From assembly GCA_043803385.1 (NCBI GenBank), contig JAZDKA010000018.1:1-48411 (forward strand): a stretch of DNA of 48,411 nucleotides, written 5' to 3'. The notes beneath the pieces are model-generated. The model made no database searches. It saw nothing but the letters and a program-made list of their open reading frames with translations, and was not told where the DNA came from. The first letter of the stretch is position 1; each line of letters starts with the position of its first letter. The translations under genes and the position numbers were made by a program. Positions 2,123 through 24,539 of this stretch are shown here, piece after piece. This stretch comes from Patescibacteria group bacterium (lineage in GTDB: Bacteria; Patescibacteriota; Minisyncoccia; Moranbacterales; JAKLHP01).

Positions 2123-4231
2123 TTACTCCAAATGAACTTTTTCGTCGAATTTTTTAAGGGCGTCCTTAAGCAGAGGGTGCTTTTTTAATTGAAAGTCGGA
2201 TTTAAGAATTTCCATGGCTTCTTCGCGGGCGATAGTGATTAGTTTTATATTGGTCAGATTTTCCATCGCAATATCGGGAATTCCGGATTGGCGCGTGCCG
2301 AAGAATTGTCCGGGACCGCGCAGTTCCAGATCTTTTTCTGCGATGGCAAATCCATTTTCACTTTCGACGAGAGCTTTTAATCTCTGCTTGGCAGATGAAG
2401 AATCGCTAGTGGTAAAAAGGAAACAATATGACTGATATTCTCCGCGGCCGATTCTTCCCCGGAATTGGTGAAGTTGAGAAAGCCCGAATCTATCAGCATC
2501 TTCGATAATCATCACAGTTGCATTAGGAATGTCGATTCCAACTTCCACCACGGCGGTGGCGACAAGAATATCTAATTTCTTTTCAGAAAATTCTTTCATC
2601 ACCTTTTCTTTTTCTGCTGGTTTCAACTTTCCATGAACCAACCCCACTTCTAAGTCGGGAAATATTTCTTCAGATAATTTTTTGTGTTCGGAAACAGCAG
2701 CCTTTACCTCCGTTAATATCTTAGAATCTTCAACAAGCGGCAAAATAACAAAGCATTGCCGGCCTTTTTTAATTTCCGAGCGGATAAAGTTATAAATTTT
2801 GTTTCTTTCTAATGGCGTTATTATTTCCGTTATTATTTTTTTCCTGTTTTTCGGCATTTCATCGATAATTGATAAATCAAGATTGCCAAAGAAGGCAAGC
2901 GCTAAAGTGCGGGGAATAGGCGTAGCGGTCATCGTTAGAAAATGAGGAACGGTATTTTTTAGCCCATCATTAATTTCTTCGATTTGTTGCTGAAGATAAG
3001 CGCGCTGGGCAACGCCAAAACGATGCTGTTCATCAACAATTATCAACGCTAAATTTTTAAAACGGATATCTTTTTGAATGAGGGAATGAGTGCCAATAAT
3101 TAAGTTCACATTGCCATTTTTTAATTTCTCTAATATTTCGTTTCTGTTTATTTTTGTTCCATGTTCCATGCTATATGTTTTATGAATCTGATAGGAATTG
3201 GTTAATAAAGCAATATCGAATTTATAATCCTTTAAAATCTTCGTAAGATTATTAAAATGCTGGAGCGCCAGGACTTCGGTCGGAGCCATTATGGCAACCT
3301 GGTATCCGGCTTGAATAGCCTGAAGCGTAGAAATAGCCGCCACGATAGTTTTTCCCGAACCGACATCGCCATTCAGCAATCTATTCATCGGGCGTGGTTT
3401 TTCGAGGTCTTTAAGGATCTGAAAGGAAGCTTTTTTCTGCGCATTAGTCAATTTAAAAGATAAGGAATTGACAAATTTTTTAATCAATTTCTCATTAAAC
3501 TTTATTTCAACTGATCTTTCTTTTTTCCAGCTGGAGCGGACCTGGATGGATTTGAACTGAACTAGGAACATTTCTTCAAAAGCAAATCTTTTCTGGGCGA
3601 TTAGATATTCATTTTTAGAGTCAGGAAAATGAATATATTTAATCGCTTTTTTAATTTCCGGAAGATGCAGTTTTTTTAATATTTCTGTTGGAATCGGGTC
3701 TTCGATATCGAGGTTGAACCTCGATAGAAATGTTTGGATTTGCCAGCGGAGCCAGCGGGAAGTTAATCCTTCAGTTTCTGGATAAACCGGAACCAATCGT
3801 CCGGTGTTGGTCGGAGTCCGGCTTTCAAGCTCCCAAACGGGATTGGAAAAATACAACCCTGAAGAATCGGCAGAAACTTTTCCGCTAAGCCTCACATTTT
3901 TTCCCTCGGTCAATGTATCGGCAATATACGGCTGATTGAACCAGATAGCTTTAACCTTCCCCGTGGCATCTTCAATAACCGCTTCGGTAATATACATCCT
4001 TTTCTTCCAAGTGCGCGCTGTTTTTATCTTTGCCACTTTCCCTTGAATAGTCGCGGTTTGCCCATTGGCTATTTCCGCGATTGAATAAATTTTGGAAAAA
4101 TCGTCATAACGGAAAGGAAAATGGAAAAGCAAATCGCGGACAGTGAAAATGCCCATTTTCTCCAAAATTTTGGCATATTTCGGGCTTATTCTAGAGATAT
4201 TTTTTAGTTGTGTTTCGGAAGAAATTATCAT
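2123..4231 (-). CDS. recG: ATP-dependent DNA helicase RecG
   Basis: GDVGSGKT Walker A, DEQHRFG, TATPIPRT, QLHQFRGRIGRG motifs and N-terminal wedge/OB domain. Confidence 0.97.
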   Translation of the reverse strand: MIISSETQLKNISRISPKYAKILEKMGIFTVRDLLFHFPFRYDDFSKIYSIAEIANGQTATIQGKVAKIKTARTWKKRMYITEAVIEDATGKVKAIWFNQPYIADTLTEGKNVRLSGKVSADSSGLYFSNPVWELESRTPTNTGRLVPVYPETEGLTSRWLRWQIQTFLSRFNLDIEDPIPTEILKKLHLPEIKKAIKYIHFPDSKNEYLIAQKRFAFEEMFLVQFKSIQVRSSWKKERSVEIKFNEKLIKKFVNSLSFKLTNAQKKASFQILKDLEKPRPMNRLLNGDVGSGKTIVAAISTLQAIQAGYQVAIMAPTEVLALQHFNNLTKILKDYKFDIALLTNSYQIHKTYSMEHGTKINRNEILEKLKNGNVNLIIGTHSLIQKDIRFKNLALIIVDEQHRFGVAQRAYLQQQIEEINDGLKNTVPHFLTMTATPIPRTLALAFFGNLDLSIIDEMPKNRKKIITEIITPLERNKIYNFIRSEIKKGRQCFVILPLVEDSKILTEVKAAVSEHKKLSEEIFPDLEVGLVHGKLKPAEKEKVMKEFSEKKLDILVATAVVEVGIDIPNATVMIIEDADRFGLSQLHQFRGRIGRGEYQSYCFLFTTSDSSSAKQRLKALVESENGFAIAEKDLELRGPGQFFGTRQSGIPDIAMENLTNIKLITIAREEAMEILKSDFQLKKHPLLKDALKKFDEKVHLE

Positions 4232-4476: not shown

Positions 4477-5028
4477 TTATCTATGCAAAAATCTTTCTGC
4501 TATGTCCACTAAATTATGTTCCTGCTTTACTTCTGGGATAAAGTCGATTAAAATCTGCCTTATTTTTACCGGGTCTTCATTGTCCAGGGGGATATGGATG
4601 TGAGGCATTAGCCTGTTTTTGCTCTCGAGGCTCAAGATCTTTTCATATGGAGGATCGTAGAATATCCAGAAAGATTTCAAATTTTCAAATTCATAGATTT
4701 CCCGTTCAGCCATTATACCTTTGGAATTTATTTTAAAATTAACGATTCTCGGTTCTTTTTGGAGAAACAAATATCCGACAACCCCGATCAAGATGAAAGT
4801 TATTGCCATAATCGGGCTGTTGTAAATGAGAGCGTAAGCTATGACAGCTGCCAGTATTATCGTGCCGAAAAAATAGAATCTTTTTCCGACAGAGTATGGT
4901 TCATGCTCAAGCGCGCTCCATTGGCAAAAATACGCATCGTAATATGTTTTTTCAGAATAGCTCATCGAAAATTCCTCGTATTCTTCGAGTTCATTCTCTT
5001 CATTTTTTGTTTTTAGATCAAAAGGCAT
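4477..5028 (-). CDS. Hypothetical membrane protein (two TM helices plus small soluble domain)
   Basis: 183-aa ORF with a hydrophobic hairpin followed by a beta-rich soluble C-terminus. Confidence 0.75.
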   Translation of the reverse strand: MPFDLKTKNEENELEEYEEFSMSYSEKTYYDAYFCQWSALEHEPYSVGKRFYFFGTIILAAVIAYALIYNSPIMAITFILIGVVGYLFLQKEPRIVNFKINSKGIMAEREIYEFENLKSFWIFYDPPYEKILSLESKNRLMPHIHIPLDNEDPVKIRQILIDFIPEVKQEHNLVDIAERFLHR

Positions 5029-5047
5029 AGTTTCGTATTATTTTTAC

Positions 5048-5105
5048 TGCGGAGGAGGAGGGATTCTCAGCCCCAGGCTAATGCACCTTGGGCGCAGAAC
5101 TCCAC
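5048..5105 (-). pseudogene. tRNA(Ser-like) 3'-end relic with hairpin inserted in T-loop
   Basis: Minus strand GGAGTTC-[30-nt hairpin, 5067-5096]-GAATCCCTCCTCCTCCGCA directly downstream of tRNA-Ser. Confidence 0.55.
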
Positions 5106-5121
5106 ATTATTTACCTCGCTG

Positions 5122-5208
5122 CGGAAGCGGGAGGATTCGAACCTCCGGTACCCTTTCGGATACTCCGGTTTTCAAGACCGGTGCGTTCAACCTCTCTGCC
5201 ACGCTTCC
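5122..5208 (-). tRNA. tRNA-Ser(TGA)
   Basis: GGAAGCG acceptor, CCGGT-CT-TGA-AA-ACCGG anticodon arm, long variable arm GTATCC-GAAA-GGGTAC, GGTTCGAATCC. Confidence 0.95.
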
Positions 5209-5324
5209 AATGTATCAATCTTAACAATTCTATGGCATTTTGTAAATTTATGCTAACATATAAGTAATTAAACATTATACATCAAACATTGATCGATGGT
5301 CAATGTTTGATGATCAATAGATTT

Positions 5325-6305
5325 ATGAAGCTAGCAATCAATGGGTTTGGGCGGATCGGAAAACCGTCTTTCAAAATTGCCTTTGAAAAAGAAGGTATTG
5401 AAGTGGTGGCGATTAATGATCTGACCGACATCAAAACTGCCGTCCATCTTCTCAAATACGATTCTTCTTATGGCAGATATGACAAGGAAGTCAGCGCTGA
5501 TGAGCAAAATGGCGAGATTATCGTTGATGGGACAAGAATAAAATATTTTTCCGAACCGGAACCGGAGAAACTTCCCTGGGGAGAATTGGGCGTGGATGTG
5601 GTTTTGGAATGCACAGGGGTTTTCGAAACTAAAGAGGACGCCGAAAAACATATTAAAGCCGGAGCGAAGAAAGTTATTCTTTCCGCGCCTGCCAAAGATG
5701 ATACGCCGGTTTATCTTCTGGGAGTGAATGAAAAGGATTATCAGGGAGAAAATATTATTTCCAACGGCTCCTGCACAACGAACTGTTTGGCGCCAATGAT
5801 AAAAGTTCTGGATGATAATTTTGGAGTGGAAAAAGGTTTTATGACAACCACGCATTCCTATACTAATGACCAAAAATTGTTAGATTTGCCTCATAAAGAT
5901 TTGCGGCGAGCCAGAGCGTCAGCACTCAATATTATTCCTACCACCACCGGAGCGGCTAAAACTGTGGGAAAAGTTTTGAAGCATTTAGATGGAAAACTGG
6001 ACGGCATCGCGCTTCGAGTTCCAACTCCAGTGGTTTCCATAACCGATTTCATCTGCACGCTGAAAAAAGAAGCTGCTAAGGACGAAATAAACAAGGCTTT
6101 TAAAGACGCGGCTTCAAATATTTTAGGAATTACCGAAGAGCCGTTAGTTTCTACGGATTTCAAGGGTGATGCGCACAGCGCGATTATCGATTTATCCTTA
6201 ACGATGGCGCAAGGAAATTTAGCGAAAGTAGTCGGCTGGTATGATAACGAATGGGGATATTCCAATAGGTTGGTGGAAATGGCACAGTTTGTATCTAGTA
6301 TCTAG
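5325..6305 (+). CDS. gap: Type I glyceraldehyde-3-phosphate dehydrogenase
   Basis: MKLAINGFGRIG, SCTTNCL active site, WYDNEWGYS. Start moved to the ATG at 5325. Confidence 0.97.
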   Translation: MKLAINGFGRIGKPSFKIAFEKEGIEVVAINDLTDIKTAVHLLKYDSSYGRYDKEVSADEQNGEIIVDGTRIKYFSEPEPEKLPWGELGVDVVLECTGVFETKEDAEKHIKAGAKKVILSAPAKDDTPVYLLGVNEKDYQGENIISNGSCTTNCLAPMIKVLDDNFGVEKGFMTTTHSYTNDQKLLDLPHKDLRRARASALNIIPTTTGAAKTVGKVLKHLDGKLDGIALRVPTPVVSITDFICTLKKEAAKDEINKAFKDAASNILGITEEPLVSTDFKGDAHSAIIDLSLTMAQGNLAKVVGWYDNEWGYSNRLVEMAQFVSSI

Positions 6306-6331
6306 TATATTGTATCTAGTATTTTAAATTT

Positions 6332-6370: not shown

Positions 6371-6410
6371 TATTCTTCACTTAACACCGATCGGTGTTAA
6401 GTGAAGAATA
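6371..6410. repeat. Perfect 40-bp palindrome
   Basis: tattcttcacttaacaccga|tcggtgttaagtgaagaata, no spacer and no mismatch. Confidence 0.95.
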
Positions 6411-7641: not shown

Positions 7642-9966
7642 ATGTTTTTAAAAAAGATCGAAATTTCAGGATTTAAGTCTTTCGCGCAGAAAACCGTGTT
7701 GGAATTTGCCAATGGCAATGATACTCCAGATGATGGAAAAATGTTTCCCATTACAGCAGTAGTAGGTCCCAATGGTTCGGGAAAATCCAACGTGGCAGAT
7801 GCTATTCGCTGGGCGATGGGAGAGCAATCGATGAAAAATCTGCGCGGAAAGAAGTTGGAAGATATTATTTTTGCCGGTTCCGGAAAAAAAGAACGCCTGG
7901 GAAGAGCCTGGGTTTCTCTGCATTTTGACAATCACGATAAAAGGATTCCGCTTGAGTTTACCGAAGTTGTCATTACCCGAAAATTATTCAGGAGCGGGGA
8001 ATCAGAATATCTTATCAATGGGAGCAAAGTCCGTCTTTTGGATGTTGTCGATCTTCTGGCGAAAGCCGGCATTGGAAGAGAAAGCTACTGCGTTATTAAT
8101 CAGGGGATGTCGGATTCAGTTTTGAATGCGACTCCGTCGGAAAGAAGAATTGTTTTGGAAGACGCGGCCGGAGTAAAGCACTTTCAAATTCAGAAAGAAA
8201 GAGCAATTAGAAAACTGGATCTTACTAGAGAAAATTTGTCGAGAGTAGGGGATTTGATAAAAGAAATCGAACCGCATCTCCGAATGCTCAAAAGGCAAGC
8301 GGAAAAAGCGCAAAAAGGAAAAGATGTGGCTGAAAAACTGAAGGAAAAGCAGCTTAAATTATATTCCTATCTTTGGTACAGTTTTCAGGAGGAAAAGAAT
8401 AATGTTTTGGGAGAAAAGAATGATTATGGAGCCAAGATGATGAATGTTCAGCGCGAAATCGACAAAATTAACGACGAACTCAATAAATATTCCAAAGAAG
8501 TTCAAAGTTCGGAAAAACAGGAAGTGCTGGAAAAGAGAAAACAGGAATTTATCAGCAGGCTTAACGCGCTGGAAAAAGAACTGGTAATAACAGAAGGGAG
8601 AGCGGTGATAGAGGCGGAAAGAAGCAAAGCGCAGAAAATCATAGAAAGCATTCCGGTTGACCTGGAATATGTGAAAGAAAAACTTTCAAAAATAAGAAAA
8701 GATCAGGATAAATTAACCGAATTTTTGAAATCAGCGGAGAAATTGGAAGATCTGGAAAATATTAAAAAGATTGCCAAAGACATAGGTAGGGAACTGGCAG
8801 ATCTCTACGAGGAAGCGCAAAAGGGCGAAGTAATACAGGAGAACACAGAAGCGGAAAGGAATAACACAGAAACGGAGAAAAAAATAAAGGGATTAGGGGA
8901 TAACAAGACAAGATTAGAAAAAGAAATAGGAGAACTGAAAATTGAAATAGGGGGAATCGAGAAAGAGATAGAGCAAGAAAGAGAAGCGGGAAAAAAGGCT
9001 CGCCAGAAATTTTTCGATCTGGAAAAGGGAATTAGCCGCAAACAGGAAGAACTCAATAAACTGAAAGACCAGTTCAACGAGTATAAAATCAAACAGGCAA
9101 GAATTGAGGTCAGAGAAGAAGACTTAATGAGTGAAATCAAGCAGAAAATAAAACTTGAGCCGTCAGAACTCAAGTATGACGGCAGTGAAGTGAATAAAGA
9201 GGAGATGGGACGGGAAATTCAGAGGCTTAAAGTCCAATGGGAGCAGATTGGGGGAATTGATCCGATGATAGTCGATGAATATGAAGAAACCAAAAAAAGA
9301 TTTGAATTTTTAAATCAGGAGTCCAAGGATCTTGAGGAAGCGATAAAATCCTGTAAGGAAGTAATCAAGGAGATGGATGGGAAAATCAAAGACGTTTTCG
9401 AAGGCGCTTTCAAAAAAATAAACGAAGAATTTTCCAAATATTTTAAAATTATTTTCGGAGGAGGAAGCGCGCATCTAACTAAGTCGAAAGTCGAAAGTCG
9501 AAAGTCGAAAGTCTCGGAAGGAGATTTAGCGAATAAAGAATTAACTGAATCGGATGGTGAAAATATTGAAGATATAGAGGAAAGTGAAGAGAAAGAAGAA
9601 ATTGGGGTTAATATTTCCGCTTGTCCGCCGGGAAAGAAAATTAATAACCTCAATATGCTCTCCGGAGGAGAAAGATCGCTTACTTCTTTGGCTTTGCTCT
9701 TCGCTATCATTTCCCACAATCCGCCTCCATTTGCAATCCTGGACGAAGTAGAAGCAGCGCTTGATGAAGCTAATTCCAGGCGGTTTAGCCGGATTATCCA
9801 AGAGCTTTCCGATAATACTCAATTCATTACCATTACCCATAATCGGGAAACAATGCGCCAAGCATCATTATTATACGGCGTTACAATGGGCGAAGACGGA
9901 ATTTCAAAATTATTGTCTGTGAGATTAGACCAGATTGGCCAAGGCGGAAGAATTATCAATAGTTGA
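7642..9966 (+). CDS. smc: SMC-family chromosome segregation ATPase (short, no recognisable hinge)
   Basis: GFKSF, GPNGSGKSN Walker A, LSGGE signature, LDEVEAALD Walker B/D-loop, ITH, coiled coils; only 774 aa. Confidence 0.9.
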   Translation: MFLKKIEISGFKSFAQKTVLEFANGNDTPDDGKMFPITAVVGPNGSGKSNVADAIRWAMGEQSMKNLRGKKLEDIIFAGSGKKERLGRAWVSLHFDNHDKRIPLEFTEVVITRKLFRSGESEYLINGSKVRLLDVVDLLAKAGIGRESYCVINQGMSDSVLNATPSERRIVLEDAAGVKHFQIQKERAIRKLDLTRENLSRVGDLIKEIEPHLRMLKRQAEKAQKGKDVAEKLKEKQLKLYSYLWYSFQEEKNNVLGEKNDYGAKMMNVQREIDKINDELNKYSKEVQSSEKQEVLEKRKQEFISRLNALEKELVITEGRAVIEAERSKAQKIIESIPVDLEYVKEKLSKIRKDQDKLTEFLKSAEKLEDLENIKKIAKDIGRELADLYEEAQKGEVIQENTEAERNNTETEKKIKGLGDNKTRLEKEIGELKIEIGGIEKEIEQEREAGKKARQKFFDLEKGISRKQEELNKLKDQFNEYKIKQARIEVREEDLMSEIKQKIKLEPSELKYDGSEVNKEEMGREIQRLKVQWEQIGGIDPMIVDEYEETKKRFEFLNQESKDLEEAIKSCKEVIKEMDGKIKDVFEGAFKKINEEFSKYFKIIFGGGSAHLTKSKVESRKSKVSEGDLANKELTESDGENIEDIEESEEKEEIGVNISACPPGKKINNLNMLSGGERSLTSLALLFAIISHNPPPFAILDEVEAALDEANSRRFSRIIQELSDNTQFITITHNRETMRQASLLYGVTMGEDGISKLLSVRLDQIGQGGRIINS

Positions 9967-11823: not shown

Positions 11824-12366
11824 TCATTCCATAGTTGGGATTTCTTTTTGATCCCAATTAGCGAGAGCAATTATGATTTTGCTATTAAGCAGATTATTTT
11901 TATCCCATCCGGCAAGAGCAGAGGCGCGGTGCATTCCTTCAACTAGAATAATTTTATCTTTGTAAATAATTCCTGTGAACATCGTTTCTTTAGGAAAATC
12001 TTTCTTTATGCTTAAAATTTTAAGGTTATCTTTAATTATTGGCAAATCCAGAATTTCCTTGAGCTGTTTAGTTTTTTCCCCGCTATAAGCTTTTTTTATC
12101 CAGGAAACAGAAGGAACGCCATAAATTAACGGAAAATCTTTAAGCGGATATCGTATCTCATATAAATTCCATTCGAGAGTTTCAGGCGAAAGGGGAACGG
12201 CATAGGCTTCTCTCCATTCATCCCAGGAATCAAAACCTTGCTCTCGCCAGTGTTTTTTCCAAGATTCCTGCCACGCTTCGCCTTTTCGCCAAACATCAAA
12301 AACCTCATTCCATTTTATTGGTTTGATAAATTCAAAAGAAGCATATTGTTTTGGAATTTTTAGCAT
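11824..12366 (-). CDS. Hypothetical protein, possible ParB/Srx-like fold
   Basis: 180-aa Trp-rich ORF with ILVEGMHR, which resembles the ParB/Srx G-x-(H/R)-R motif. Confidence 0.65.
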   Translation of the reverse strand: MLKIPKQYASFEFIKPIKWNEVFDVWRKGEAWQESWKKHWREQGFDSWDEWREAYAVPLSPETLEWNLYEIRYPLKDFPLIYGVPSVSWIKKAYSGEKTKQLKEILDLPIIKDNLKILSIKKDFPKETMFTGIIYKDKIILVEGMHRASALAGWDKNNLLNSKIIIALANWDQKEIPTME

Positions 12367-12384
12367 AATAAGCGATTAAAGTTG

Positions 12385-13635
12385 TTAAATTATTTTTTTC
12401 CGAAGCGAATCACTGGGCAATTTTGAAGCTATGATTAATCCTAAGATTATGAAAATGGTCATTGAAAATGCAGCCACTCGGTAATTCATATTTCCGGTTT
12501 TTGGAATCAATGTCACAATCAGTCCCCAGGACAAAGGGCCAATGAAAGTAGCAAATCTTTCAAAAAGAGTATAAAAAGTAAAAGACTTGTTCAGCATATT
12601 ACGAGGAGTGAGTTGCAGGAGGAAGGCTCTGGAGACAGTCCATATTGGGCCAAACCAAAGTCCCATTGCCAGAGAAATTATTATAAAAAAAGAAAAATTT
12701 TTCGTAATTGCCATTGCCGGAAATATGATTAGCCATCCTGCCAGCACTCCCAATAATGTTTTTTTAAAACCGATTTTGTCGGCAATCCAGCCGCTTAGCA
12801 AAGCTCCAATTGCCGATGTTACCAAAATTCCCAGTAAAAGAAAGGATTTAGTTGTATCATCTACGCCGAATAATTTTTCCAAATAAATAGGAAAATTATT
12901 GGAAGAGGTAATTATTGCATCGTTAAATAAAAAATAAGCCAGGAAGAAGCGTCCAACACCCACTGACTTAAAAAGATCTTTAGTCGAACTAATTATATTT
13001 CGATATTCTTCCCGGATGCTTATGGGAACAGTCTTTTTCCGGGCACTTTCTTTAAATAATAAGATAATCGGCAAGGAAAAAATAAAAAATAAAAGAGAAG
13101 CAGGAATGAGAGTCTGGGCACGAGTAGATGCCGATGAAAATAATATTATTGCTCCAGTTGCAATCGGCAGAGTTATCAGGAGACCAAATATTTGTCCTAG
13201 CCAATTTCCGAATTGTCCCCAGCCCGAAGCGAGTCCTTGTTTTTCCGGAAGCGCGACATCTTCAAGCATTGGATTATAGTAGGTAAAACAAAATAAGTAA
13301 AAGAAAGTTGCCAGAGTGAAGGTAATTATACTCAGTATGTAATAATCAGGATAGAAAACAGCAATTAATGCTGTCAGTAAGAAAAAGATAAAAGATAGAA
13401 TCGTTGTGATACGCAAACCAGGCAATCTAACTTTTAATTTATCAGCTATTGATCCGGCTACGGGAGCAATTAAAATAAATAAAATACTTGAACCGACAAA
13501 AGTGGCATTAAACCATAAATCTGGCAAGCCATGATCTATGACTAGCCATTGGGAATAATAAAGAAAAAATACGATGAATACTATGGAGTTAGCGAAATCA
13601 TACAAACTCCAAATAAGTAATTTCTTTTTATCCAT
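12385..13635 (-). CDS. MFS transporter (UMF1/Atg22-like family)
   Basis: WSLYDFANS N-terminus, about 12 TM segments, GSIADK and GWIADKIGFK MFS motif A copies. Confidence 0.9.
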   Translation of the reverse strand: MDKKKLLIWSLYDFANSIVFIVFFLYYSQWLVIDHGLPDLWFNATFVGSSILFILIAPVAGSIADKLKVRLPGLRITTILSFIFFLLTALIAVFYPDYYILSIITFTLATFFYLFCFTYYNPMLEDVALPEKQGLASGWGQFGNWLGQIFGLLITLPIATGAIILFSSASTRAQTLIPASLLFFIFSLPIILLFKESARKKTVPISIREEYRNIISSTKDLFKSVGVGRFFLAYFLFNDAIITSSNNFPIYLEKLFGVDDTTKSFLLLGILVTSAIGALLSGWIADKIGFKKTLLGVLAGWLIIFPAMAITKNFSFFIIISLAMGLWFGPIWTVSRAFLLQLTPRNMLNKSFTFYTLFERFATFIGPLSWGLIVTLIPKTGNMNYRVAAFSMTIFIILGLIIASKLPSDSLRKKII

Positions 13636-13755
13636 AAACTATAATAATTGTTTATGAGTTTAAGTATGCTTAAATTATCAGTCCAAACCTCGCTTTTTGC
13701 AAGAGGCAAGTTTCATAAATTATTCATCTTATCCATCTAATTTTCCATCGTTTTC

Positions 13756-13795
13756 AATGTGTCATTTTCCTACGGCCGTATAATTATGATACAAT
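13756..13795. repeat. Palindromic direct repeat, left copy
   Basis: aatgtgtcattttcctacggccgtataattatgatacaat; 36/40 identical to 14361-14400. Confidence 0.95.
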
Positions 13796-13801
13796 AGGAT
13801 T

Positions 13802-14362
13802 ATGTATAAATTTGGATCAGTGCAAAAGAAAATTATGCTTGCTCTCTTGGGCGGTGTAGCGCTGGGATGTTCTTATTCCCCTTGGCAATATTTTCGCACT
13901 TTCAGGAAAATACGAAAAGAGTGGAGAAGAATTGATCAGCGAAATTTTAACCGTTCCATCAGGAGGCTTTCGAAGGAAAAGTTAGTTGAAGAAGTGATGC
14001 TTGCTGATGGATCTTTCCGCTTAGTGCTAACGAAAAAAGGAAAACGGCAAGCTAAAATTCTCAATCTGCTTGGAAGCAGTATCTATTTTAAGAAACCAAA
14101 GCGTTGGGATGGTAAATGGAGGATTGTGATTTTTGATATTCCGGAAAAGGATCGGCTGTTTCGCGATATCTTGCGTGAGCATTTATATTCCCTCCAGTTT
14201 TTCAAATTGCAGCAAAGTGTTTTTGTTTCCCCGTATCCATTTGAAAAGCCTATTCTGGAATTGGTTTTTCTTTATTCGGCTGAACCATATGTCCGAGTAA
14301 TTACGGCCACAAAAATTGATAATGAAGCTAAGATTAAAAAACACTTTTTTAAGTCCGCTTAA
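13802..14362 (+). CDS. PaaX-like protein (wHTH plus Cas2-like domain)
   Basis: wHTH wing LTKKG followed by WDGKWRIVIFDIPE...R..L...F..LQQSVFVSP, the PaaX central/Cas2-like fold signature. Confidence 0.85.
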   Translation: MYKFGSVQKKIMLALLGGVALGCSYSPWQYFRTFRKIRKEWRRIDQRNFNRSIRRLSKEKLVEEVMLADGSFRLVLTKKGKRQAKILNLLGSSIYFKKPKRWDGKWRIVIFDIPEKDRLFRDILREHLYSLQFFKLQQSVFVSPYPFEKPILELVFLYSAEPYVRVITATKIDNEAKIKKHFFKSA

Positions 14363-14400
14363 TGTATCATTTTCCTACGGCCGTATTATAATGACACAAT
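14361..14400. repeat. Palindromic direct repeat, right copy
   Basis: aatgtatcattttcctacggccgtattataatgacacaat; overlaps the TAA stop of the PaaX-like gene. Confidence 0.95.
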
Positions 14401-14482
14401 TTAGAATGTTGGTAGTTGTAAATTTTTCATAAAAAAACGCCTGGAGAAATTCTAGCGAGAAAATCTCCAGGTAGATTGATGC

Positions 14483-15019
14483 CTATTTTATTTCTTTGAG
14501 GTCAAGAGTAATTCCTTTCACTATGGTTCCCTCGGGCACATGCAGGGCATACGATGAACTTCTGGTTCCATGAAGAAGCGATTCTGGTATCAAAAGCCAT
14601 GACAATATCCTTGTTTTCTTTCGGATTGTCTTTCCTGAAACCCTAGCCATATAGGCGTTGGTCCTTTTTTCTTCATATACCGTTGCGTTTTCAGCTATAA
14701 GTTTTCCTAATTTTTTCCCGCCGTCCGGCAACTGATAATAAAAGAAATAGTATGGAATGGATTCTATTCTTCCCGAACCGAGAAAAAATGCACCTTCTGT
14801 AGATCTGGAGTTGTTAAGTGCGACGAGTTCGACTCTATCTAGCTCTTCATATTTCTGCTCGCTTGGAGACATACTTACGACCGCAAACATGACAAATAAA
14901 GCAACCATGCCTCCAATGATCAAACCCATTATTCCTGATAAAATACGTTCTGTTTTGTCATCTCCTTTTTTGACACCGAGGTAAAGTCCCAATCCCATCA
15001 AAACGATAAAGATTACCAT
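14483..15019 (-). CDS. Hypothetical membrane-anchored protein
   Basis: Two N-terminal TM helices. GGAGGAG SD precedes the ATG at 15019. Hairpin plus A-run terminator at about 14431-14471. Confidence 0.7.
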   Translation of the reverse strand: MVIFIVLMGLGLYLGVKKGDDKTERILSGIMGLIIGGMVALFVMFAVVSMSPSEQKYEELDRVELVALNNSRSTEGAFFLGSGRIESIPYYFFYYQLPDGGKKLGKLIAENATVYEEKRTNAYMARVSGKTIRKKTRILSWLLIPESLLHGTRSSSYALHVPEGTIVKGITLDLKEIK

Positions 15020-15175
15020 AATGCTCCTCCTGTTTTTATATTTCATGCTTAGTTAGCATGCTTAATGCCAAAGAACAATCATTATTGATATGCAAATCCA
15101 TGATGAGAAATAATATAATATTAATTTACTTTTGTCAACTTTCCCAAAAAGAAGCAATAGTCAACGATCAACAAA

Positions 15176-15207
15176 TTTAACGGCTAAATCGCGATTTAGC
15201 CATTGAA
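15176..15207. repeat. Dispersed palindrome, copy 1
   Basis: Core ggctaaatcgcgatttagcc is a perfect 20-bp palindrome; near-identical to 42937-42968. Confidence 0.9.
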
Positions 15208-15707
15208 GCAAGAGGAGAAAGCGTTGCGATTATGGAACGATGTTGGAACTTGTGGCGGAGAGAACAGGAAACGCAAATTATTTAGAATGCTTTCCTTCTT
15301 TCTTAACATTTTTGATGCCTCTGTTTTTAACTTTTCCCTCAAGGCGGGAAGCTCGGCGCGGATTCTCTTTCCCAATTACTCTAAACTCCTTTTGACGGTC
15401 ATTTTTTTCACGCATATCCGGTAGTAGAAATTCGACAATTTATTCTTTTTATAAATTTATCGAATTAATGTTAATTTTTATTGTTTATTATACTTTTTCC
15501 GATTAGCGATTTTTTCAAAAAATCAGTCGAATTTTCACTACCGGACATATTTTTATGGGATCAGATCATTTAAGTTTTTGCTTAATCTGAACAAATTATA
15601 GCATTTCTTTGAAATTGGTGGTAGAATAGTTTTAGAACTGAACTTTAAGGGGTTTGGTTTTAAGTTTAATCAGGAGCTAATTAAAAGCGGGGAATTTATC
15701 AAAAAAT

Positions 15708-17354
15708 ATGTCGCAGACTTTATATCGCAAATACCGTCCCCAAAAATTTTCTGATGTTATCGGACAGCAGCATATTATCCAGACGCTTGTTAATTCCATA
15801 AAAAACGGAAGGATCGGACACGCTTATCTTTTTGCCGGTCCCCGGGGAACTGGAAAAACAACAGTAGCTCGCTTACTTGCAAAGGCAGTTAACTGTTCCT
15901 ATATGAAAGATACGGACTTGTCCGCCAAAGCTTTAGCGTCGGCGGAGCCGTGTCTTGAATGTGAGAACTGCAAAAACATTCAAGACGGACGATCTTTGGA
16001 TATTATTGAAATTGATGCCGCTTCAAATACCGGCGTTGATAATATCCGAGAACTGCGGGAAACAGTGAAGCTTCCGCCGACAAGAGCCAAATACAAAGTT
16101 TATATCATAGATGAGGTCCATATGCTCTCAACCGGAGCTTTCAACGCGCTTCTCAAAACCTTGGAAGAGCCACCGGCCCATGTTATTTTCATTCTAGCGA
16201 CCACTGAAATCCACAAAGTTCCGGATACGATAATATCTCGTTGCCAGCGGTTTGATTTTGCCAGATTATCCCTGGAAAATATAATCAAAAAACTTTCCAG
16301 CATAGCCAAAAGCGAAGGAGTTGAAATAGAAAAAAATGCCCTGGAAATGATTGCTATTTCGGCTGAAGGAGGAATGCGTGATGCCGAATCTCTCTTGGCG
16401 CAAGTAATATCGCTTGAAGACAAAAAAATCACTTCCAAGGAAGTGGAAGAAATTCTGGGAACAACTGACAGGGAAAGCGTTGAAAAGATGGCCGAGATTA
16501 TGATTGATAAAAATGCCAACGAAGCAATAGAACTGGCAAACAAGCTTGCCAGAGATGGCTACGATTTGGAAGTATTTAATAAATCATTCTTAAATTATCT
16601 GCGCCAGCTTCTTCTTATTTCCATAGACGAGAAGCTCTCGGAAAAATTATCATTAGAATTAACTTCAGAACAAATTAAAAAAGCCTTAAAAATAGCCAGA
16701 GGCCATACCCGGGAAATTCTAAAAATAATCGAGGCATTTTCAGAAATCCAGAACAAAATAAAATCTTCATTTATTCCCCAGCTTCCAATAGAAATTGCGA
16801 TTGTAAAGTTAAGCGGAAAATATGAAGTAGAGAACATCGAACCAGAAATAAAACAAGACGAAAAGCCATCAAGCTATCAGCCTATTGAACCATCGGGTAA
16901 TAGCAATAAAATTGCCAGACCGGAAATAAAAAAAGTTGAACATCAGGATAATGCTTCGGCAAAAGACTTAAATATTACTGTTGGTGAAATTAAAAATAAA
17001 TGGGGCGACTTGATCCGCGAAACAAAGCCATATAATCATTCCCTTTCCGCATTTTTGCAAAACTGCCAGCCAGTAGAAATCAAGGAAGAACGCCTTATAA
17101 TCGCCACGAAATATAAATTTTATAAAGATACGTTAAGCGAAAACAAGAATAAATTGACAATTGAGAATGTGCTTGCTAAGCTTTTGGGGTCAAACATCAG
17201 AGTAAATTTTGTTAGCGAAGATGAGGCAGGGATCAAGATACAATCAACATCTCCTGCGCCAAAAGATAGCCCATCTTCCAATATTCCTAGGGAAACTAAT
17301 TCTCTTCTTAATGATGCCATGGAAATGATGGGCGGAAAGATTATTGAGGAATAA
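15708..17354 (+). CDS. dnaX: DNA polymerase III subunit gamma/tau
   Basis: LYRKYRP, GPRGTGKT, Zn motif C...PCLECENC, IIDEVHML, SRC. Confidence 0.97.
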   Translation: MSQTLYRKYRPQKFSDVIGQQHIIQTLVNSIKNGRIGHAYLFAGPRGTGKTTVARLLAKAVNCSYMKDTDLSAKALASAEPCLECENCKNIQDGRSLDIIEIDAASNTGVDNIRELRETVKLPPTRAKYKVYIIDEVHMLSTGAFNALLKTLEEPPAHVIFILATTEIHKVPDTIISRCQRFDFARLSLENIIKKLSSIAKSEGVEIEKNALEMIAISAEGGMRDAESLLAQVISLEDKKITSKEVEEILGTTDRESVEKMAEIMIDKNANEAIELANKLARDGYDLEVFNKSFLNYLRQLLLISIDEKLSEKLSLELTSEQIKKALKIARGHTREILKIIEAFSEIQNKIKSSFIPQLPIEIAIVKLSGKYEVENIEPEIKQDEKPSSYQPIEPSGNSNKIARPEIKKVEHQDNASAKDLNITVGEIKNKWGDLIRETKPYNHSLSAFLQNCQPVEIKEERLIIATKYKFYKDTLSENKNKLTIENVLAKLLGSNIRVNFVSEDEAGIKIQSTSPAPKDSPSSNIPRETNSLLNDAMEMMGGKIIEE

Positions 17355-21341: not shown

Positions 21342-21514
21342 TATATGTGATATAATAAAAATAAGTTTTAGCGAATTTAGAATTAGGAATTAAGAATTGA
21401 GAATGGGAAGTTAGAGTTTAGAATATAGGAATTATATTTTTTTCTGTGTTCTTTATTCCATATTCTTATTCTAAATTCAAAATTCATAATTCAAAATTCA
21501 TAATTCTAATCTTT

Positions 21515-23491: not shown

Positions 23492-23594
23492 AATTTCTAA
23501 TTCTCAATTTCTAATTTCTAAACAATTTCCAATTATTTAATTTTTAAATTTTAAAATTGTTTGAAAATTGAAAATTGAAAATTGAAAATTGGCA

Positions 23595-24539
23595 ATGTCT
23601 GTTCACAAGTCTGTTTTGCTCAAGGAAAGCATAGAAAGTCTGAATTTAAAGTCTGGTGATATCGTTGTTGACGCAACACTGGGAGGTGGAGGACACAGTG
23701 AAGCGATATTGGAAAAGATTGGAGAAACTGGAATTTTGATAGCTATTGATGCAGACAGCAATGCGATAGAAAAATTCAAGTCAAAAGTCAAAAGTCAAAA
23801 GTCAAAAGTTTGGGGAAAAATATTTTTAGTTAATGATAATTTTGCGAATTTAGATAATATATTAAGTGATTTAAGGATAGATAAAGTTGATGCTATTTTG
23901 GCGGATTTCGGGATATCTTCAGATCAGCTGGATAGCAAAGAAAGAGGATTTAGCTTTCAAAAAGATGCTCCGCTCGATATGCGGATGAATCAGGATGAGA
24001 AAATAACGGCGGAAAAGATAGTTAATAATTATTCAGAAGAAGAACTCTCAAGAATTTTTAAGGAATATGCGGAGGAGAGATATGCGAAAAGCATAGCTAA
24101 GAATATCGCAAAACAAAGAAAAACAAAACCAATCAAGACAACACTGGAATTGGTCTCGATAATTGAAAATTCAGTCCCAGAAAGGTACAAGCATCAAAGA
24201 ATAAGCCCGGCGACAAGAGTTTTTCAGGCTTTGAGGATAGAAGTTAACAAAGAATTGGAAAATATCAGAGAATTTATTCCAAAAGCAATTGAAGTTTTAG
24301 ATAAAAAGGGAAGGCTAGCGGCAATAACCTTCCATTCGGGAGAAGACAGAATAGCTAAAGAAATTTTTAGGGGAAATGCAAGGGGATGCATTTGCCCGCC
24401 CAGTTTTCCGATTTGCCGATGCGGCAATAAGCCTCGGATAAAAATTATTGCCAAAAAACCTATTTTGCCAAGCGAGAGCGAAATAGAAACTAATCCGCGC
24501 TCAAGAAGCGCGAAATTAAGAGTAATTGAAAAAATATAG
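23595..24539 (+). CDS. rsmH: 16S rRNA m4C1402 methyltransferase RsmH
   Basis: HKSVLL, DATLGGGGHS, PLDMRM, FQALRIEVN, NPRSRSAKLR. Confidence 0.97.
   Translation: MSVHKSVLLKESIESLNLKSGDIVVDATLGGGGHSEAILEKIGETGILIAIDADSNAIEKFKSKVKSQKSKVWGKIFLVNDNFANLDNILSDLRIDKVDAILADFGISSDQLDSKERGFSFQKDAPLDMRMNQDEKITAEKIVNNYSEEELSRIFKEYAEERYAKSIAKNIAKQRKTKPIKTTLELVSIIENSVPERYKHQRISPATRVFQALRIEVNKELENIREFIPKAIEVLDKKGRLAAITFHSGEDRIAKEIFRGNARGCICPPSFPICRCGNKPRIKIIAKKPILPSESEIETNPRSRSAKLRVIEKI

Follow-up and report, generated by a model that had tools for sequence, protein, structure and literature searches.

A mini-PaaX gene flanked by its own palindromic repeats in a Moranbacteria genome: a probable autoregulated repressor on an accessory unit

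A truncated PaaX-type DNA-binding protein, here called mini-PaaX, is encoded in a 48,411-nt stretch of an ultra-small groundwater organism, a Patescibacteria group bacterium (Moranbacterales; contig JAZDKA010000018.1 of assembly GCA_043803385.1, positions 1–48,411; hereafter the window), where its gene is bracketed by two copies of a palindrome-containing direct repeat. We regard it as fairly probable that gene and repeats together form a self-flanked, probably autoregulated repressor with a small regulon, carried on an accessory, patchily distributed unit. This reading is drawn from the fold and family of the protein, the layout shared by its relatives, the architecture of the palindromic sites, the covariation of a recognition-helix residue with a site base, the similar cores served by paralogues with similar helices, the positions of four further sites elsewhere in the genome and the tie between the downstream site and the end of the gene. 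Mini-PaaX very probably binds its flanking palindromes; repression, the part played by the downstream site and the movement of the unit are predictions.

The repeat family of the window comprises two 40-nt copies, one ahead of the gene (U) and one at its end (D), which start 605 nt apart and are 90% identical (36/40; Table 1). The first-pass annotation of the window had proposed this bracketing pair, and a repeat search recovered it. U ends 6 nt ahead of the ATG at 13802, and D opens on the final two letters of the TAA stop codon (14360–14362). Each copy is built of an 8-nt arm, a 5–6-nt spacer, the 10-nt palindrome tacggccgta, a second spacer and a second arm. Within each copy a single arm pair is mismatched, at the 15th position from the dyad (G13761/T13790 in U, A14366/C14395 in D), just as had been reported. 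A 20-mer common to U and D is present twice in the window against 0.02 expected, and none of 100 shuffles reached two. Because U and D are 90% identical as direct repeats and 79% complementary (over 39 nt) as inverted repeats, direct repeat is the better description. U occupies the divergent gap that separates a major facilitator superfamily (MFS) gene from the mini-PaaX gene, and it holds the sole -10-like hexamer ahead of the ATG (TATAAT). D faces a convergent gene and so has no protein gene to drive. One open reading frame (ORF) makes up the content of the unit.

The architecture of the site was derived from 75 sites at 36 loci whose proteins are orthologues of the window protein with 55% identity or more; the sites were anchored on the core and positions counted from the dyad. 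The site reads CAT-N6-ACGGCCGT-N6-ATG, plus four covarying arm bases. Positions 1–4 (ACGG and CCGT on the two sides of the dyad) are almost invariant, positions 11–13 (CAT and ATG) are conserved at about 1.1 bits, and positions 14–17 are poorly conserved (0.2–0.7 bits). Positions 5–10 pair in part, and since pairing falls to background past position 17, the element is 34 bp long, with 13-bp arms round an 8-bp centre. In one copy of a locus or in both, GGTC or GACC frequently replaces the central GGCC (loci L021, L024, L052, L055, L056, L067, L094, L167 and others). This could be a mutational hot spot or a tolerated asymmetry; cytosine methylation as the source of the transition is a guess.

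The protein appears to combine a winged helix with a Cas2-like domain, as the first-pass annotation had supposed. Its residues 100–175 match Pfam PaaX_M (“PaaX protein central Cas2-like domain”) with an E-value of 9.9e-22 and 77.3 bits against a cut-off of 24, and the Pfam Cas2 family (PF09827) is matched below its cut-off (15.4 vs. 23.8 bits). Pfam gave no match to the PaaX N-domain at E up to 1 and none to the PaaX_C effector domain, the protein ending at residue 186; profile comparison returned weak matches to QsrR/YodB/PadR winged helices (E 0.03–0.8). In the AlphaFold model (pLDDT 75.4, 13 relatives), three helices and a beta hairpin (residues 6–76) are followed by a beta-alpha-beta-beta-alpha-beta unit, and the hydrophobic N-terminus would be the first helix of the winged helix, not necessarily a membrane anchor. 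Foldseek against the Protein Data Bank (PDB) placed Escherichia coli PaaX (8a39) first (E 9.2e-4, probability 1.00, 197 aligned columns), then Rv0674 (3kfw), then a series of Cas2 structures, several of them with probabilities of 0.96–1.00. A PDB sequence search with the Cas2-like half returned chance matches only, and homodimer prediction scored 0.35 against a mark of 0.42, with one control at 0.43, a result that weighs on neither side.

PaaX of E. coli W (8a39), the repressor of the paa genes that responds to phenylacetyl-CoA, has, like mini-PaaX as modelled, a winged helix followed by a Cas2-like middle domain, and a review of the phenylacetate pathway describes the region equivalent to this domain in a solved PaaX structure as a dimerisation motif (PMC9493321). 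Mini-PaaX is a truncated protein of the same type, 186 residues long against a 305-residue chain, without the C-terminal effector domain; its Cas2-like domain is the one that serves dimerisation in PaaX. The NCBIfam PaaX model (TIGR02277) gives it 33.5 bits where the cut-off is 264.55 (E 3.2e-08, residues 46–172 only), and no PaaA or PaaC was found in the 95.6%-complete genome. For E. coli PaaX the same review lists the site TGATTC(N27)GAATCA and describes repression of its own promoter Px by steric hindrance (PMC9493321). That operator is long, with inverted half-sites more than two helical turns apart, and the CAT-N20-ATG of the mini-PaaX site, round a conserved core, is comparable in geometry. 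Unlike PaaX, the mini-PaaX system has six paralogues with private palindromes, a second site fixed at the stop codon and an extra conserved 8-bp centre. Cas2 of CRISPR systems (TIGR01573, PF09827) and VapD share with the C-terminal half of mini-PaaX the ferredoxin-like Cas2 fold and an Asp conserved after the first strand. Mini-PaaX differs from Cas2 in falling below both cut-offs (21.2 vs. 24.5 bits for TIGR01573), in belonging to a genome where, at 95.6% completeness, no Cas1 was found and to a window with no array, and in having the domain fused to a winged helix.

The recognition helix covaries with the site. Residue 48 is N with T at arm position 14 in 15/15 orthologous loci, and S with A at the same position in 13/13; four of these 28 loci carry an additional site with another base there. 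The two states are interleaved in several clades of a protein tree whose backbone is partly unresolved, and at least two or three independent switches between them are indicated, a count that is not well fixed. R51 is replaced in one clade, and the CAT element is replaced there too. Such covariation is what direct read-out predicts, and it suggests that mini-PaaX reads the arms of its palindrome directly. It is suggestive rather than proof, because a gene and its flanking sites are inherited together.

The self-flanked layout extends across the family. The first-pass annotation had advised looking for palindromic direct repeats around homologues, and these were present at all six paralogues in the host genome and at 53 of 89 relatives (those with at least 250 nt on either side of the gene; upstream/downstream repeat scoring at least 16), compared with 8 of 173 controls, in which neighbouring DNA was used. 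At the 53 loci the downstream repeat begins a median of 14 nt past the stop, and the upstream repeat ends a median of 41 nt ahead of the start. The gene that follows the downstream repeat runs in the same direction in 31 of them and is convergent in 21; at the one remaining locus the flank holds no such gene. A TATAAT at a fixed place in the palindrome belongs to the window and some relatives only. Clustered at 50% identity, the family numbers 6195 clusters when E may reach 0.001, 3635 when the limit is 1e-10 and 824 when it is 1e-30; its best 150 members are all 144–241 residues long. Among the papers listed by literature searches, with supplementary files outside their scope, none that describes it was found. 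A collection of viral contigs contained one relative among 135 pattern matches (L126, positions 3004–3450, 75% identical, on a 38.5-kb contig filed as viral), in which the N-terminal 38 residues are unmatched and the downstream palindrome alone is present.

The host genome (0.96 Mb, 37% G+C, 52 contigs, 95.6% complete; Moranbacteria, candidate phyla radiation) has six family members, each above the PaaX_M cut-off, and the palindrome that brackets them differs from paralogue to paralogue. Altogether 33 palindrome copies fall into six families of 3–9 copies, nearly all of them intergenic. Solo palindromes, which the first-pass annotation had anticipated, exist for the window family as four copies on contig C10, within 11 kb and in one orientation, each 67–188 nt ahead of a gene on the same strand (the genes encode DUF5674, YGGT-family and unnamed proteins). 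They have TAGAAT where U has TATAAT. Their spacers are asymmetric, rich in T/C on the left and TATAAT-like on the right, and in all four keep the direct orientation of U and D. Where paralogues resemble each other in the recognition helix, their cores are alike: those on contigs C28 and C11 both use TGC-N4-GCA, and those on C1 and C34 both use CGATCG. The C34 paralogue (about 14604–15337, L010) is split by an in-frame stop and is likely a pseudogene, yet both of its flanking palindromes are kept. The C11 paralogue (4866–5450, L009) reaches 25.4 bits on the NCBI Cas2 model, above the cut-off of 24.5, and would therefore be auto-annotated as a CRISPR Cas2, though the genome has no Cas1.

Two details of palindrome placement stand beside these counts. 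The C10 stretch (47464–59642, L011) is about 11 kb of same-strand small genes (DUF5674, NUDIX, YGGT, serine hydrolase, unnamed) that holds one C11-family copy in addition to the four of the window family, and two of the copies in it begin 3–5 nt after the preceding stop, like mini-PaaX downstream sites. On C34 (76517–76594), a C1-family and a C34-family palindrome lie 8 nt apart in one intergenic gap.

Under the favoured reading, a dimer or higher oligomer of mini-PaaX would bind the palindrome of about 34 bp, contacting its consensus and the four arm bases. U covers the putative -10 region of the gene itself, which predicts self-repression and perhaps repression of the divergent MFS gene as well, and the four C10 sites would make up a small regulon. 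Mini-PaaX would also bind the downstream site, which may act as a roadblock, an insulator or a second cooperative operator and may, at the RNA level, form a 3′ hairpin. The site-gene-site unit would move with neighbouring genes, probably by ordinary recombination, and its two direct repeats would ease deletion of the unit, leaving a solo site.

Several observations weigh against this regulator reading, or at least against its simplest form. A consensus promoter scan found no -35 partner for the TATAAT and no full -35/-10 promoter in U. As a family rule, a TATAAT fixed in the palindrome is ruled out, being perfect in 5/34 upstream and 3/38 downstream sites. The downstream copy as promoter of the next gene is likewise ruled out as a general rule by the 21/53 loci in which that gene is convergent. 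The MFS gene is not a conserved partner either: homologues occur in 10/301 genomes, and 0/10 of these loci have an adjacent mini-PaaX or the core motif. In the host genome, 8/33 palindrome copies lie between convergent stop codons (four mini-PaaX downstream sites and four solo copies); because convergent positions need no promoter, a pure promoter-operator picture fails for the downstream copies. The long solo copies are near-identical, so some copying process must have spread them. The Cas2-like domain, moreover, keeps an invariant D112 at what we take to be the position of the metal-binding Asp of Cas2, and might be a nuclease.

The pairing of the arms is the remaining difficulty for a plain repressor. 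Positions 14–17 pair within a site in 67–88% of sites, against 27–44% when arms are taken from different loci, and compensated changes, 24 of them in the arms, separate sites that are served by one protein. A simple half-site model does not predict such changes. They call for one of two explanations, either selection on intrastrand pairing (as cruciform, hairpin DNA or RNA) or arm-to-arm copying, for which template switching in quasi-palindromes is a known mechanism. Some palindromes outreach the shared repeat with differing bases in the two copies (e.g. L031, L021 and L087). The window palindromes themselves fold weakly as single strands (-9.1 kcal/mol for U and -5.5 kcal/mol for D; z-scores -1.4 and -1.0). 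Cruciform pairing could reconcile duplex read-out with arm covariation, by analogy with HlyU of Vibrio, which a preprint presents as a winged-helix regulator at a cruciform-forming palindrome at a promoter (bioRxiv 10.1101/2022.03.07.483294). HlyU differs in belonging to an unrelated family and in having no self-flanking layout.

Gene and flanking sites act together as an accessory unit, subject to gain and loss. Mini-PaaX homologues are present in 29/61 related genomes. Orthologues of 64–80% identity occur in other taxonomic families; within the same genus, two of three genomes are without one, and the copy in the third is broken. Both flanking genes are common to only 6 of 3916 pairs among the 89 loci. 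Beside one conserved neighbour-gene pair, mini-PaaX is present in 4/30 genomes, and the DNA beyond differs nearly everywhere; the other 26/30 loci have neither mini-PaaX nor a solo site. One unit can be compared with its syntenic gap, which measures about 1.4 kb at locus L052, 58 nt in genome G302, 324 nt in G303 and 346 nt in G309. The flanking genes in G302 are divergent and 72–75% identical in DNA to those of L052, and because the same genes stand 58 nt apart there, the L052 unit is an insertion/deletion difference. A further small ORF and a third palindrome are included in the extra L052 DNA. In G303 the corresponding gap (L180, about 2690–2810) contains about 120 nt of G+C-rich, structured-looking DNA, possibly a small RNA gene.

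For the window itself, the two flanking genes were not found in three same-genus genomes and one same-family genome, where three contigs begin 0.7–1.2 kb upstream of dnaX and the genes there differ. The one DNA sequencing run listed, containing 5% of the sampled words, showed at 80% likeness nothing but fragments of distant relatives, stacked over the conserved codons 14110–14163; no RNA run containing the locus was listed.

The first-pass annotation had gone further and read the unit as a candidate integrative cassette, in which a circle with the gene and one palindrome recombines at the dyad of a chromosomal palindrome and leaves hybrid sites. Mini-PaaX or a host recombinase would then serve the 13-8-13 site. 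We consider this improbable. The accessory, gained-and-lost character of the unit has held up, and the patchy distribution, the scarcity of shared flanks, the existence of solo sites and the syntenic locus without the unit in a relative all agree with a cassette. The reading of the arm swap between U and D as an attL/attR scar is not supported. If two different perfect palindromes had crossed over at the core, the left half of each copy should pair better with the right half of the other copy than with its own. Over positions 1–17 the window does show 7 cross-site against 9 within-site mismatches, but the gain is one pair, at position 15, and this position varies freely. It tolerates A or G: two solo copies are (A,A) and two (G,A), the orthologues are (G,G), (G,A) and (A,A), and the six copies of the window family in the genome and the orthologues together cover all four possibilities, the remaining one being (A,G). 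The window swap looks like ordinary variation at one tolerated base pair, and the asymmetric spacers of U and D, which agree in direct orientation, also speak against the scar.

Wider counts point the same way. In 66 within-locus copy pairs from 29 orthogroup loci, double differences in the arms were compensated in 24 cases and swapped in 2, with one copy paired in 18 and neither in 3; over positions 1–17, asymmetries common to two copies were in direct orientation 93 times and swapped 24 times. A broader set of 50 loci from all subfamilies gave 27 compensated, 17 swapped and 64 shared-direct positions. Swapped central bases (GGTC vs. GACC) number about 6 against 4–5 same-orientation pairs, which we do not take as commoner, and recurrent transition in GGCC would explain them. 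At the C23 paralogue both palindromes are perfect, and two compensated pairs set them apart; since a crossover at the core cannot yield compensated perfect palindromes, this locus cannot be the outcome of a recent crossover of two different sites.

Pairing between U and D was compared in 47 combinations from 28 orthologous loci, of which 11 pair better within a site and 34 are neutral. Two of the 28 loci look as a dyad crossover would leave them: L052 has 12 within-site against 4 cross-site mismatches and L025 has 7 against 2, their flanks being mutually reverse-complementary over about 28–30 nt, central bases included. The outer half-arms of L052 are found nowhere else in its genome at 0–1 mismatch. 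Both loci are equally plain inverted repeats, in which D is the reverse complement of U. The arm swap of the window adds almost nothing to the cassette; the reverse-complement loci and the patchiness do.

A single-palindrome empty site had been proposed as a check, and the one syntenic empty locus (G302, for L052) holds no palindrome in its 58-nt gap, whose edges cannot be placed to the base at this divergence; the extra L052 DNA, with its further ORF, is also more than the unit alone, and the 26 loci beside the conserved neighbour gene again have no solo site. The absence of an integrase, a CRISPR array and a paa operon from the window, noted at the outset, was borne out: the two tyrosine recombinases of the genome lie on other contigs, C43 and C45, and no CRISPR-like array was found among the tandem repeats of the window. 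The protein had been cast as either a site-binding or a mobilising factor. The former role is very probable; the latter sits poorly with a unit that has no recombinase in or near it.

Recombination sites such as loxP, FRT and the pdif modules of Acinetobacter plasmids have two inverted arms round an 8-bp centre. The mini-PaaX site resembles the loxP/FRT layout, being 34 bp long, its inverted arms of 13 bp set round an invariant centre of 8 bp, and 2/28 loci look like exchange products. It departs from that layout in its palindromic centre, which gives no direction, and in arms that vary between loci, and the system departs from loxP/FRT in having no dedicated recombinase and no single-palindrome empty site among the loci compared. 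A bolder proposal makes the thousands of mini-PaaX genes minimal site-specific mobile units: the 34-bp palindrome would be both operator and recombination site, exchange at the dyad by the Cas2-like domain or a recruited host recombinase would let the regulator gene enter, leave or be swapped at any cognate palindrome, L052 and L025 would be fresh products, and perfect palindromes would later be homogenised by hairpin-templated copying. We judge this to be quite improbable.

A further alternative, which we hold to be very unlikely, likens the system to repetitive extragenic palindromes (REP) and their associated transposases (RAYT, TnpA_REP). The Cas2-like domain would nick hairpins or cruciforms of its cognate palindrome and so spread or homogenise the palindromes, the gene being a domesticated or selfish partner. 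The likeness is in the arrangement, a single-copy gene flanked by its own palindromic repeat, with further copies between genes and several private pairs per genome. Each mini-PaaX paralogue has such a private family that also occurs alone, including the four solo copies between convergent genes; the covariation of arms within sites, the palindromes that exceed the shared repeat (L031, L021, L087) and the invariance of D112 and neighbouring residues would also fit. The protein, however, falls in PaaX_M, an unrelated fold without HUH/Y1 motifs, and copy numbers are tiny (3–9 per family). The flanks, moreover, are mostly direct, and many copies stand in promoter-like positions. The covariation of helix and arm base points to read-out of duplex DNA, the window palindromes fold weakly, and the equivalent region of a solved PaaX structure is a dimerisation motif according to the review cited above (PMC9493321).

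Control at the RNA level, in which the protein binds the 3′ hairpin of its own mRNA (the downstream copy) and similar hairpins to set stability or termination, is the least likely alternative and very improbable: the downstream copy does lie within or just past the transcript, and its sense strand has more G-T than A-C pairs among non-Watson-Crick pairs (39 vs. 21; binomial p 0.027, uncorrected and with loci that are not independent), a weak bias that hints at an RNA-level role of the 3′ copy, but upstream copies show no strand bias (30 vs. 30), D of the window has an A-C mismatch on the sense strand besides its weak fold (-5.5 kcal/mol), no T-run follows D and a terminator scan finds none there, no Rfam family matches U or D, and the residue-base covariation fits DNA read-out. 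D as an intrinsic terminator in the window is likewise unsupported, given its weak fold and the missing T-run. The sole Rfam match in a scan of 13000–15800 was AniS, inside the MFS gene and below its gathering score, and is taken as chance.

The surroundings of the unit add some features of their own (Table 1). The stretch 11824–15046, from rplL to the region upstream of dnaX, holds the MFS and mini-PaaX genes together with two genes of 180 and 187 residues; it had no counterpart in four same-family genomes searched, in three of which the contig breaks just upstream of dnaX. The stretch has the look of a hotspot of variation. Units of 7 nt are repeated in short tandem arrays (4.4–5.6 copies, three of them 100% regular) at 6291–6322, 9481–9513, 21468–21506, 23561–23591 and 23778–23809, and comparable short tandem repeats adjoin palindromes of the C23, C1 and C28 paralogues.

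Table 1. Features of the mini-PaaX unit and its surroundings (window coordinates).
Feature	Position	Strand	Remarks
U, upstream repeat copy	13756–13795	+	Dyad between 13775 and 13776; left arm 13758–13765, core 13771–13780, right arm 13786–13793
TATAAT, -10-like hexamer	13779–13784	+	In right half of U, 18 nt ahead of ATG; putative promoter, predicted from sequence
Mini-PaaX gene, 186 residues	13802–14362	+	Predicted winged helix (about residues 6–86) and Cas2-like PaaX_M domain (residues 100–175)
Codons of predicted recognition helix, residues 46–58	13937–13975	+	N48 covaries with arm base 14; R51-S52 pair accompanies CAT element
Cas2-like (PaaX_M) domain	14099–14326	+	W102-D103, W106-R107 and D112-I113 motifs invariant in 13 aligned relatives
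D, downstream repeat copy	14361–14400	+	Overlaps stop by 2 nt; core 14376–14385, arms 14363–14370 and 14391–14398
Hairpin and T-run	14440–14471	-	Likely terminator of the convergent 187-residue gene; outside the repeat system
MFS transporter gene	12385–13635	-	Divergent, start 120 nt from U; possible local target
Solo palindrome of C1-paralogue family, 34 nt, near-perfect	6374–6407		68 nt past a 338-residue gene, right after heptamer tandem repeat 6291–6322

To our knowledge, candidate-phyla-radiation bacteria have few recognisable regulators, none of them studied at the bench. Since each mini-PaaX gene carries its site on both sides, sequence alone pairs each protein with its probable site, which offers a route to the regulons of uncultivated bacteria and a possible source of orthogonal repressor-operator pairs. 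The pairing of N48 with T and of S48 with A is a first element of a testable recognition code. Some members of the family risk being annotated as Cas2. If the palindromes also act as recombination sites, the less likely reading on present evidence, the family would represent a new kind of minimal mobile element, in which a regulator and its binding sites would spread together through the tiny genomes of the candidate phyla radiation.

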